Made by a program: the position numbers and the translations under genes. Source: Bacteroidales bacterium UBA1797 (GTDB taxonomy: Bacteria; Bacteroidota; Bacteroidia; Bacteroidales; VadinHA17). From it: a stretch of 64,000 nucleotides of DNA. Location of the stretch: NCBI GenBank assembly GCA_002319885.1, contig DCFT01000028.1, forward strand, positions 88,834 to 152,833, written 5' to 3'. Numbering within the stretch: the stretch's first letter is position 1; each line of letters opens with the position of its first letter. The notes under the pieces are model-generated. The model worked only from the letters and a program-made list of their open reading frames with translations, made no database searches and had not been told where the DNA came from. Below, piece by piece: positions 16,912 through 21,968 of this stretch.

Positions 16912-17436
16912 TTATTCCTGGATGAATGTTATATAAAATGTGCCACTGAAATTGCCTGGTGGATTTGACGCTGAATTTCCAACAGTAAGCGTCCCCCCGA
17001 TGTTTAATACTGTATAAGCCGGCGGAATAGTAGTCATTATGAAAGGTGATGCCGGATTGGAGCTACCGATATGAAGCAATAATGAACCTCCGTTACTACC
17101 AGGTAATGACACATCAGGCCCGTTCAGAAGTGAAACCATCGTGCCCGGGTTGGCAACCAGTCTGTAAGTAACGGTTGAGAAAGAGTATCCAAGGTTTAGT
17201 AGTATTATATCCCCGGTAGCTGACCTCGCCCCTGCAGAACTGATGGTAACAGTGCCCCCCATAGCTCCGAGGGTGAACGCGCCGAAACCAAGGTTTTGTG
17301 TAACTGTTACAGAAATGGGACGTGGAGGTGGTTCCTGTGCAATCGTTTCCTGAAAAATAAAAAACAGAAAAATGATCGTAATTGGTAATATGCATGATTT
17401 AGACCTGATGAAACCTATTTTATGTACAGCTTTCAT
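16912..17436 (-). CDS. DUF4402-type pilin-like subunit (divergent fourth paralog, proline-rich mature N-terminus)
   Basis: Shares block order with the other three subunits: NLGFGAF, GGTVTISS, VTYRLVANPG, LNIGGTLTVGNSASNPPGNFSGTFYITF. Its ATG overlaps the stop of the upstream giant gene (ATGA at 17433-17436). Confidence 0.6.
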   Translation of the reverse strand: MKAVHKIGFIRSKSCILPITIIFLFFIFQETIAQEPPPRPISVTVTQNLGFGAFTLGAMGGTVTISSAGARSATGDIILLNLGYSFSTVTYRLVANPGTMVSLLNGPDVSLPGSNGGSLLLHIGSSNPASPFIMTTIPPAYTVLNIGGTLTVGNSASNPPGNFSGTFYITFIQE

Positions 17437-20400: not shown

Positions 20401-21968
20401 GCTCCCAATGTTCCTGTCTTTTTGAAAGGTCTCTCAGGGGTGCCATTAACAAAAGTTTCAATTGAATCGAGTACATCGGAACTTACGCCTGCAAGATAAT
20501 ACCATGTATTTGTAGTAAGAACTGTTCCTCCGCCAACATCCCTGTTTAATGATGCAGTGTTGGAAGAATTTCTTATCTCAAATTCCACTTTATTATTAGT
20601 ATAAACTCCGAATTTATAACCGCCGGTTGAATTATTCTGGTTACTTGCAATCTTCTGATCACGATTCAGAGTACTGGGGTAGACCCATGCAGAAACCGTA
20701 ATGTTTCCGGCAAAATTAATAATGGGATCATTAATAACTTCAGCATATTGATTTGAGCCATTGAGTCCGAGAGAATTATTTATCTTACCTGGGAGATAAG
20801 TTGGAGCGTTATAAGTAGTCCCTGAATGATTAGAAGCACTGAAATCTTTAAATCCGTTATCATCAAGATGCCAGACACCCTTATAATGACTGTCCCAGAC
20901 GGATGTAACTGAAGGGTCGCTGGTGATCTGCGGGTTGCCATAAAGTATTTTAATTACAGTATTTGCCGTACATGAAAGGACCGGGATCCTGACCCAGGCA
21001 ATAAGATCGCCATTTGTTCCATTATAATATTCGATCTGATGATCAAGTTTGTTATAATTTCCATCAGTAAAAATAATATCGAAACCATTGGAATTCAGAA
21101 TCTGACCCGCCGGAGAATTCTTTAGGAAGGTCTGCCCTGTAAGATTAACTAATAAAGGAAAGCTGCTAAGATCTTTTCCCCCGGTAACTTTTGTATAATC
21201 GATAGTAATGTTTCGTTCATAAGTATAACCCATTGAGGCAGTGTTACAAGCTGTTACCACTACATAACCATTAGCACCAGAGCCTCCTGTCCGGTCAGTG
21301 GTACTATTAGTACAAGCACCACTGCCACCACCTCCATAGGTATTTCCACTATTCCCATTTGAGCCTCCACTAACACTTGCACCACCATTTCCCCCATTCT
21401 GGGAGGTACCGGATCCGTATGAACCTGCTGCAGCAGTAGGAGCATCACCGCCATTACCGGAACTTCCCGCACCGCCGCCGCCGCCACCAGAATATGTTCC
21501 ACCACCTGTACCTCCATTTCCCCCTTTATAAACAACATCACCCGTAGAATTTCCTAAAGTTCCTCCTGCAACACCTGCTGTACTATTACCGACAGTTCCT
21601 GAACCCCCGTCAGCTACAACATCTGATGTATTAAAAGAGGAAATACCACCTTTAGTATTTGCCGCACCTCCTGTGCCTACTACAACGGAGAAGTTAGTAC
21701 CAGGAGTAACCGTTAAGATACTTCGGGCATAAGCACCACCACCACCGCCACCACCTCTTCTGGCGGAAGAAGTTATTGTACTTCCACCTCCTCCGGCACC
21801 CCAGCATTCAACCATTATCGAGGTCACTCCTGCAGGAACATTATAAGTACCGTTTGATGTAAATGTCTGGGTCTGACCCATACTAATACGTGATAGAAAA
21901 AGAACAGCAAAGAAGATCATACTTCTTTTAGCTACAGATGCAAGCTTTTGTGAAAATGAAGCGATCAT
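17433..21968 (-). CDS. giant T9SS-secreted surface protein: glycine-rich N-terminal domain, DUF2341, LamG, Ig-like repeats, type A Por C-terminal sorting domain
   Basis: Residues ~35-240 are glycine-rich ([27 protein letters not shown]...). Residues ~250-346 are DUF2341-like (ITIDYTKV...LLVNL...ILYGNP), followed by a LamG-like block and repeated Ig-like modules ([13 protein letters not shown]...[10 protein letters not shown]). The last ~79 aa (17436-17672) match a Por_Secre_tail pattern ([21 protein letters not shown]). Confidence 0.75.
   Translation of the reverse strand: [1511 protein letters not shown]

Follow-up and report, generated by a model that had tools for sequence, protein, structure and literature searches.

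A predicted RemA-like type IX secretion cargo encoded within a conserved operon of chaperone-usher type in Bacteroidales

According to our analysis, the gene at positions 17433 to 21968 (minus strand) of a 64,000-nucleotide stretch of the genome of Bacteroidales bacterium UBA1797 (assembly GCA_002319885.1, contig DCFT01000028.1, positions 88,834 to 152,833; this whole stretch is called the window here) encodes a giant protein of 1511 amino acids (aa) with a type A sorting domain of the type IX protein secretion system (T9SS) and with a conserved C-terminal half that, as judged by profile comparison, shares homology with RemA and RemZ, two gliding adhesins of Flavobacterium and proven T9SS substrates. 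The gene is embedded among genes for small DUF4402 proteins, a chaperone-like protein and an usher-like outer-membrane protein, and on the evidence of gene order in related genomes its co-encoding with this predicted fiber operon of chaperone-usher (CU) type is evolutionarily conserved. We hold with moderate confidence, taking the variants of this reading together, that the giant is a RemA-family T9SS adhesin which joins a CU fiber, in an arrangement resembling that of the fimbrial adhesin Mfa5 of Porphyromonas gingivalis.

The genes of the operon follow one another on the minus strand in the order three DUF4402 genes, the gene of a 295-aa protein, the giant gene, a fourth DUF4402 gene and the gene of a 1209-aa protein. 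A previous interpretation of the window (here the sequence-only reading), made from its letters and open reading frames (ORFs), had described the giant gene as lying between the chaperone-like gene and the fourth subunit and usher genes, and as overlapping the fourth subunit gene by an ATGA stop/start; both descriptions hold, the ORF is intact, and the overlap is directly visible in the sequence. A residue-for-residue identical protein is encoded on five independent metagenome contigs, so the giant is not an assembly artifact. The features of the gene and of its product are as follows.

17433-21968, minus strand: giant RemA-like T9SS adhesin gene, 1511 aa (uninterrupted ORF with an ATG start, translation).
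21969-22126, minus strand: 158-nucleotide (nt) intergenic gap between the chaperone-like gene and the giant gene (upstream stop at 22127, ATG of the giant at 21968).
21876-21968, minus strand: predicted signal peptide, residues 1-31, with cleavage before Gln32 (SMG|QTQ), read by eye from the translation.
20298-21857, minus strand: variable N-terminal payload (Pfam; many orthologous giants lack these domains or carry others instead).
21249-21857, minus strand: Gly_rich_2, residues 38-240 (Pfam, E=7e-16).
20898-21086, minus strand: DUF2341, residues 295-357 (Pfam, E=1.5e-8).
20298-20762, minus strand: Laminin_G_3, residues 403-557 (Pfam, E=1.2e-19).
19254-20231, minus strand: Ig-like repeat region, about residues 580-905 (Ig_7 and I-set matches, conservation profile).
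17706-19259, minus strand: conserved RemA/RemZ-type C-terminal half with three domains (AlphaFold2 [AF2] model, matches to RemA and RemZ, conservation 0.6-0.84).
17442-17663, minus strand: T9SS type A sorting domain at the C-terminus (C-terminal domain, CTD), about residues 1436-1509, with the invariant Lys1505 (TIGR04183, fold matches).
17433-17436, minus strand: ATGA overlap between the stop of the giant gene and the start of the subunit D gene (TGA stop on the ATG of the 174-aa DUF4402 gene).

The assignment of the giant to the T9SS rests on several concordant lines of evidence. The TIGR04183 model scores 23.2 bits on the whole protein, with an NCBI cut-off of 23, and 34.5 bits on its last 100 aa. 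In the AF2 model the CTD (residues 1436-1508) forms a small beta-sandwich, for which a Foldseek search returned the CTD of NucA bound in the T9SS translocon (8glk_D; TMt 0.76, root mean square deviation 2.6) and the CTD of RgpB (7pq4; TMt 0.60). All 65 distinct orthologous C-terminal tails match TIGR04183 at E<=0.01, and in their alignment Lys1505 of the giant is invariant. As type A substrates, RemZ and a fusion bearing the RemA CTD have been resolved inside the SprA-PorV translocon, and there the conserved Lys1110 of RemZ contacts PorV (PMC10994853); Lys1505 is the counterpart of this residue. The type A CTD claimed in the sequence-only reading is thus borne out by the score, by the orthologous tails and by the fold. 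That reading had also stated that the giant lacks a DUF4402 or pilin module, and indeed none was found in the giant by Pfam, nor was any pilin among the Foldseek matches of its C-terminal 627 aa. These results support the view that the giant is a type A cargo of the T9SS and has no detectable pilin module, and we infer that it exits via the T9SS and the DUF4402 subunits via the usher. The RemA-like family shows no sharp boundary between the CTD models of type A and type C: NF033708 is matched as well by 14 of the 65 CU-linked tails, and the short RemA-like proteins (616-651 aa) at loci L089 (Flavobacterium sp. P21) and L090 (F. caeni-type P0264), whose genes both adjoin recX, bear the NCBI name "T9SS sorting signal type C" and score better with NF033708 than with TIGR04183.

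RemA is a mobile gliding adhesin of F. johnsoniae. The profile of the giant family matches RemA (8gl6_D) with an E value of 3.7e-44, profile positions 997-1450 being aligned to residues 980-1435 of the 1436 residues of RemA, and matches RemZ with E=2.1e-32; the window giant used as a single sequence still matches RemA with E=2e-13, including the motif WNG..TDWN..NW. The confident AF2 model of residues 885-1511 (predicted local distance difference test [pLDDT] score 85.9, predicted TM-score [pTM] 0.73) resolves this part into a beta-helix-like domain (904-1069), a sandwich (1070-1269), a second sandwich (1283-1421) and the CTD, the latter attached via a disordered linker. Among 44 orthologues, conservation starts around residues 820-885 and peaks at 1072-1270, where the identity to the window sequence amounts to 0.6-0.84; the identity of the CTD (0.35-0.49) lies below that of the non-CTD part. 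When the module was searched in 1.84 billion cluster representatives (50%-identity clusters) at E<=1e-30, it was present in 1583 of them, and among the 150 best matches, proteins spanning about 420 to 5169 aa, its position was almost always C-terminal.

The giant thus shares with RemA and RemZ of F. johnsoniae both a homologous C-terminal stretch of ~450-560 residues, CTD included, and a modular N-terminal part with domains of carbohydrate-binding type. It differs from them in that the identity in the common module is only about 23%, the modules linked to CU genes forming one cluster of their own with a mean identity of 56%, and in the genomic setting, since the two Flavobacterium RemA-like genes with visible context have no DUF4402, chaperone or usher genes nearby. 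The N-terminal part of RemA carries a SUEL-type lectin domain; Pfam gave no SUEL_Lectin match in the window giant, and the domain is present in its CU-linked relative P0117.

The linkage of the giant to the operon was surveyed with the usher alone as the query, a design blind to the giant, in one genome per GTDB species. Eighty loci were kept, the window proteins were mapped on all their ORFs, and 65 loci with enough upstream sequence were regarded as informative. In 64 of these 65, a gene whose product ends with the C-terminal module of the giant (~600 aa) lies directly upstream of those for the class-D subunit (the classes are described below) and the usher; usher identity in these loci falls to about 46-50%. 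The overlap between the stop of the giant and the start of subunit D, surveyed in 71 locus records, measures 4 nt in 48, 1 nt in 8 and 8 nt in 5, and in the window this start/stop context couples the translation of the giant to that of subunit D. The carriers are labeled as metagenome-assembled genomes (MAGs) of Bacteroidales, Rikenellaceae, Marinilabiliaceae and Chitinophagaceae, besides the isolate Chitinophaga sp. YR627 (L082), and a separately looked-up homologue (P0089, L086) is labeled Prolixibacteraceae. The linkage is also kept in a different chromosomal neighborhood (L005), and the divergent homologues P0089, P0067 and P0117 are all found in DUF4402 loci. P0117, the most divergent relative (about 25% identity in the module), is encoded by the first and not by the fifth gene of its operon (L087), and since it nevertheless stays in the operon, the linkage is independent of gene order. 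With hardly an exception, the orthologous DUF4402 loci therefore do carry a giant with a T9SS CTD, and the possibility of a chance insertion, which the sequence-only reading had raised, is thereby refuted for practical purposes.

Two side observations concern the integrity of these loci. At L005 (8866-9864) and at L073, which lies on the same contig, the chaperone gene is separated from that of the giant by two small ORFs of 94 and 209 aa without a Pfam match, inserted in this lineage. Moreover, in the long-read MAG loci L021, L048, L071, L075, L023 and L027, the giant gene is broken into several ORFs, which reflects either real pseudogenization or nanopore frameshift errors.

Upstream of the conserved region, the N-termini of the orthologous giants are hypervariable, with completely different length and content. 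The shortest complete genes encode about 1,270 aa, and ORFs of more than 3,150 aa occur that are still cut at the edge of the locus. The payloads detected across the giants include Gly_rich_2, DUF2341/LamG, GEVED, the SUEL lectin and PKD-like repeats. In the window giant, a hidden Markov model scan recovered the domain order put forward in the sequence-only reading (glycine-rich, DUF2341, LamG, Ig-like, T9SS CTD); DUF2341 is present as claimed, its position being slightly off, at 295-357 according to Pfam rather than at ~250-346. In the Ig-like region, Pfam found Ig_7 (residues 652-725) and, weakly, I-set (730-818), and the conservation among the orthologues already extends over the last repeat (about 820-905). 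The glycine-rich, DUF2341 and LamG part, on which the sequence-only reading had laid stress, is thus an exchangeable payload, and the operon-specific part is the C-terminal ~600 aa. The Ig-like repeats of the giant-family profile match GhpA (9flp_A), a grappling-hook protein from Aureispira, a predatory bacterium, with E=1.4e-78 in 15 stretches, and the glycine-rich N-terminus weakly matches tail-fiber proteins of the cyanophage Pam3 (E=0.0015).

Read by eye from the translation, the giant begins with a hydrophobic N-terminus that precedes Gln32. In Bacteroidetes, substrates of signal peptidase I follow a rule whereby the mature protein begins with Gln (pyroglutamate). A Gln immediately after the predicted signal peptide is found in all the aligned DUF4402 subunits and likewise in the window giant, and this fits the rule.

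The remaining genes of the operon encode the following products.

24197-24715, minus strand: subunit A, DUF4402 class A, putative major fiber subunit (PF14352, E=1.8e-26).
23612-24130, minus strand: subunit B, DUF4402 class A paralogue (PF14352, E=2.2e-26; 77% identical to A).
23040-23573, minus strand: subunit C, DUF4402 class C, minor subunit before the chaperone (PF14352, E=1.5e-19; separate cluster).
22127-23014, minus strand: PapD-like periplasmic chaperone candidate, 295 aa (PapD_N, weak).
16912-17436, minus strand: subunit D, DUF4402 class D, 174 aa, candidate tip pilin (PF14352, E=1.3e-14; own cluster).
14241-16880, minus strand: usher-like outer-membrane protein, residues 1-880 of 1209 (AF2 model and Foldseek).
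13251-14240, minus strand: SPOR-repeat tail of the usher, residues about 881-1209, predicted periplasmic peptidoglycan anchor (PF05036).

The DUF4402 genes cluster by position in three orthologous classes, i.e., class A in first position (duplicated in the window, where subunit A clusters with the first-position subunits of other loci), class C before the chaperone and class D before the usher. In the alignment, the stretch from the Gln to a conserved FG motif has a median length of 18 residues in class D, 25 in class A and 29 in class C, so that the mature N-terminus of class D is shorter by 7-11 residues than those of classes A and C. Class D starts with a proline-rich segment (QEPPPRP), whereas classes A and C start with an extension of alternating residues of the ATASATI type, which class D appears to lack. 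Should this alternating segment be the donor strand, then class D has none to donate and would be the first-assembled, distal subunit, which suggests subunit D as a candidate tip pilin. Our literature search found no paper mentioning the DUF4402 family.

The 1209-aa protein (gene 13251-16880) is accepted here as an usher at the level of its predicted fold. In the AF2 model of its residues 1-880, computed with 50 homologues, the parts follow one another as in an usher: after an N-terminal domain come the initial strands of the barrel, a sandwich resembling a plug, the other barrel strands and a pair of C-terminal sandwiches. The 17 best Foldseek matches of this model in the PDB are all FimD or PapC (E=1.3e-21 to 7e-10), with other barrels such as LptD and porins appearing from about 7e-6 or worse. 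At the sequence level, Pfam detected no usher signature in the window protein, where it found only SPOR repeats and SdrD_B-like sandwiches, and no Usher family in 20 orthologues, whose only matches were SdrD_B and CarboxypepD_reg; the usher profile searched against PDB sequences likewise returned no usher, only SdrD-like sandwiches. The tail of the protein matches PF05036 with E=8.5e-21 in 2 stretches, the SPOR repeats spanning ~893-1057, and the RlpA and FtsN models match it as well. SPOR repeats are present in most Bacteroidales loci, whereas the Chitinophagaceae-type ushers (about 855-900 aa) are without them. About 2,700 usher homologues were retrieved from the protein collection at E<=1e-5. 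Public records misleadingly name the usher-fold protein as a whole "cell division protein FtsN" or "SPOR domain-containing protein". PapD_N was matched in 14 of 20 orthologues of the 295-aa protein at E<=0.01, and the chaperone profile found no match among PDB sequences.

The CU type of the operon, as claimed in the sequence-only reading, is therefore weakly supported by sequence, with a chaperone that is weakly PapD-like, and stands by virtue of the model of the usher, which is FimD/PapC-like. The system resembles the classical and archaic Fim, Pap and Csu pili in its operon logic, in which genes for a number of small subunits stand together with those for a putative chaperone of the periplasm and an usher of the outer membrane, and the predicted domain layout of the usher candidate, along with its best structural matches, would liken it to FimD and PapC. 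It differs from those pili in that its proteins have no sequence-level match to Usher or pilin families and only a marginal match of the chaperone, in that the window usher carries C-terminal SPOR repeats, and in that the adhesin is a T9SS cargo instead of a two-domain pilin exported by the usher. We know of no described SPOR-tailed usher. To our knowledge, neither classical or archaic CU pili nor a widespread CU-like system have been described in Bacteroidota, and a literature search for archaic CU systems in Bacteroidetes returned none. In sum, we read the system as a CU fiber of Bacteroidota not described before, with which the giant is co-oriented and probably co-transcribed; it comprises three classes of DUF4402 subunits (A, C and D), a putative chaperone of PapD type and an usher of FimD/PapC fold with, in this genome, a SPOR tail.

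The arrangement has a precedent in its organization. [quoted passage not shown] The giant is likened to Mfa5 by this organization, not by sequence, in that it is likewise a protein with a T9SS CTD encoded in a fimbrial operon and with a conserved C-terminal and a variable N-terminal part. Mfa5, however, belongs to Mfa1, a type V pilus derived from lipoproteins, whereas the fiber genes here are of CU type, and the giant has no von Willebrand factor (VWA) domain (no Pfam match) and has a RemA-like C-terminal half. For these reasons the giant works at most like Mfa5, without being a member of that family. A second parallel is offered by SprB/SprF, where the gene of a giant T9SS adhesin is coupled to that of an outer-membrane protein thought to hold or handle the adhesin at the surface. 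By analogy, the window could contain another giant T9SS adhesin gene linked to the gene of an outer-membrane partner; in our case, the CTD is of type A, not of type B, and the partners are a CU set, not a PorP/SprF barrel.

Along the lines of the Mfa5 precedent, the DUF4402 subunits would be polymerized through the usher, while the giant, led by its predicted Sec signal peptide, would be translocated separately by SprA/PorV with loss of its CTD. Both products would then join at the cell surface, where the conserved C-terminal half of the giant would dock on the fiber. The likeliest docking partner would be the distal, first-assembled class-D subunit, because its translation is coupled to that of the giant and it apparently has no donor strand. 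In its most specific form, which we put forward tentatively, this reading describes a hybrid surface organelle of two secretion systems, in which a CU fiber, its usher stapled to the peptidoglycan by SPOR repeats, captures the RemA-like giant via its conserved C-terminal half on a tip subunit without a donor strand; the fiber would serve as a universal stalk and the hypervariable N-terminus as a swappable warhead.

Several observations weigh against the giant being part of a CU fiber. The contact between giant and fiber is one that we infer, and the pilin nature of DUF4402 is deduced from context, the DUF4402 profile having no match among PDB sequences. The quality of the usher model is only moderate (pLDDT 65, pTM 0.38), and PapD_N scores 22.5 bits on the 295-aa protein, below the Pfam cut-off of 23 (E=1.2e-4). 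At L079, a subunit, a chaperone, subunit D and the usher are encoded with no giant in the 22.6 kb of the locus, and the short contig of L083 has CU genes without a giant at that position, so the fiber system can exist on its own; the D subunit of L079 groups with the other class-D subunits. The 158-nt gap ahead of the giant gene in the window is unusually long, exceeds the other gaps of the operon and leaves room for a separate promoter. Finally, among the window genes that were scanned, which are a part of its ORFs, there was no gene for a T9SS component.

In the main rival reading, the two products would be co-regulated and physically separate, the CTD of the giant being exchanged, by analogy with known type A cargo, for an anionic lipopolysaccharide (A-LPS) anchor on the outer membrane and the DUF4402 fiber acting as an independent adhesion device; the genes would stay together merely to ensure simultaneous production. 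The giant does have a type A CTD, and such cargo of P. gingivalis is attached to A-LPS (PMC4804311, PMC5053529), an attachment for which no fiber is needed and which thus adds to the objections above. Flavobacterium RemA-like proteins function without neighboring CU genes, a CU locus without a giant exists (L079), and neither Pfam nor Foldseek detected a pilin-like or donor-strand element in the giant. What co-regulation alone leaves unexplained is the specific subfamily of C-terminal modules, found in these operons in every case examined, the overlap between the giant stop and the class-D start that persists in most loci across deep divergence, and the higher conservation of the non-CTD part of the C-terminal half in comparison with the CTD; we deem it rather unlikely. 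A third possibility is that the CU apparatus is mainly an anchoring platform, a short DUF4402 stub in the SPOR-stapled usher tying the adhesin to the peptidoglycan much as PorP/SprF-type partners serve type B cargo. The SPOR repeats of the usher in most Bacteroidales loci, the constant adjacency of subunit D and usher to each other and to the giant, and the fact that the surface retention of RemA-type cargo is not established in the literature examined would all agree with such a platform. It is nonetheless improbable, since the Chitinophagaceae-type ushers keep the giant without having SPOR repeats (L076, L078, L080, L082, L084) and since two or three further subunit genes, with class A duplicated, suggest a polymer over a stub.

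Two more explanations can be largely set aside. The giant might be the tip adhesin of the fiber exported through the usher itself, its C-terminal sandwich being pilin-like and not a T9SS signal; the gene does occupy a position where classical CU operons often put adhesin genes, the CTD has the form of an Ig-like sandwich also seen in pilin domains, and Pfam Por_Secre_tail (PF18962) stays below its gathering score on the giant (21.2 versus 27). Against this speak the TIGR04183 matches in all the tails, the best structural matches, which are T9SS CTDs and not pilins, the conservation of the PorV-contacting Lys, the homologues RemA and RemZ trapped in the T9SS translocon, the size of the proteins, which reach over 3,000-5,000 aa with bulky domains, and the absence of any similarity of the giant to DUF4402. 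Export through the usher is accordingly disfavored as very improbable. The last explanation, the chance insertion of a mobile or recombining giant gene, functionally unrelated, between the chaperone and subunit D, could draw on the highly recombinogenic N-terminal part and on the length of the 158-nt gap relative to the other gaps of the operon. It is hardly credible in view of the giant's presence in 64 of the 65 informative species-level loci, across several families, and of its retention in different genomic neighborhoods and in a different gene order, and for practical purposes the synteny survey refutes it.

With regard to transcription, the operon probably forms a single transcript, because its genes lie on one strand, the gap between chaperone and giant is short in the orthologues (mostly 30-60 nt), and in the gap of the window (21969-22126) we found no terminator-like site, the predicted RNA fold was no more stable than that of shuffled controls (z=0.34), and a pattern search detected no Bacteroidetes -7 box. 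A weak candidate for such a box was detected ahead of the operon:

24837-24844, minus strand: candidate Bacteroidetes -7 promoter box TACATTTG, lying upstream of the first DUF4402 gene at a distance of about 120 nt (pattern search).

The frequency of this motif in the window is no higher than expected by chance or in shuffles, and a scan for sigma-70 promoters and terminators, which is ill-suited to Bacteroidota, yielded nothing beyond chance.

In the surroundings of the operon, a stand-alone response-regulator receiver protein of 130 aa (24984-25376, plus strand) is encoded divergently from it, a position kept in L003 and L004, beside a 316-aa ORF without a Pfam match (25410-26360, minus strand); histidine kinases or sigma-54 activators flank the operon in L079, L086 and L087. 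Further upstream, the window encodes a 1504-aa TamB/DUF748-like protein (26547-31061, minus strand). An ExbB/ExbD pair lies between the TamB/DUF748-like gene and the operon in L003 and L004 and is absent from the window. The window also encodes a second T9SS cargo, which is 497 aa long and bears a sorting domain of type B (CHU_C). Its gene (6035-7528, minus strand) comes directly downstream of a pair of M16 peptidase genes that overlap each other (7525-8847 and 8805-10067), a synteny kept in L001 and L003.

All the parts of the system are of known kinds, i.e., a T9SS cargo, a RemA-like adhesin, an usher and the principle of Mfa5. As to their combination, the literature search returned no description of a CU-type fiber in Bacteroidota with a SPOR usher and a nearly always coupled RemA-like T9SS adhesin bearing an exchangeable payload; the fibers of this phylum are known mainly as type V pili. 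If our reading is correct, this would be the second known case, after Mfa5, in which the T9SS supplies an adhesin to a fiber built by another route, and the first in which that route is an usher, and in the form of a hybrid organelle it would include the first CU fiber on record for Bacteroidota. It would also suggest that the conserved, uncharacterized C-terminal half of RemA-type adhesins serves for the attachment to a surface partner, and it provides a testable hypothesis for the surface retention of RemA-type type A cargo. The idea is experimentally accessible in a cultured carrier, Chitinophaga sp. YR627 (NZ_FOUX01000001.1, 641269-663875). More generally, the pattern suggests that environmental Bacteroidales diversify the specificity of their adhesion by swapping N-terminal payloads on a constant anchor.

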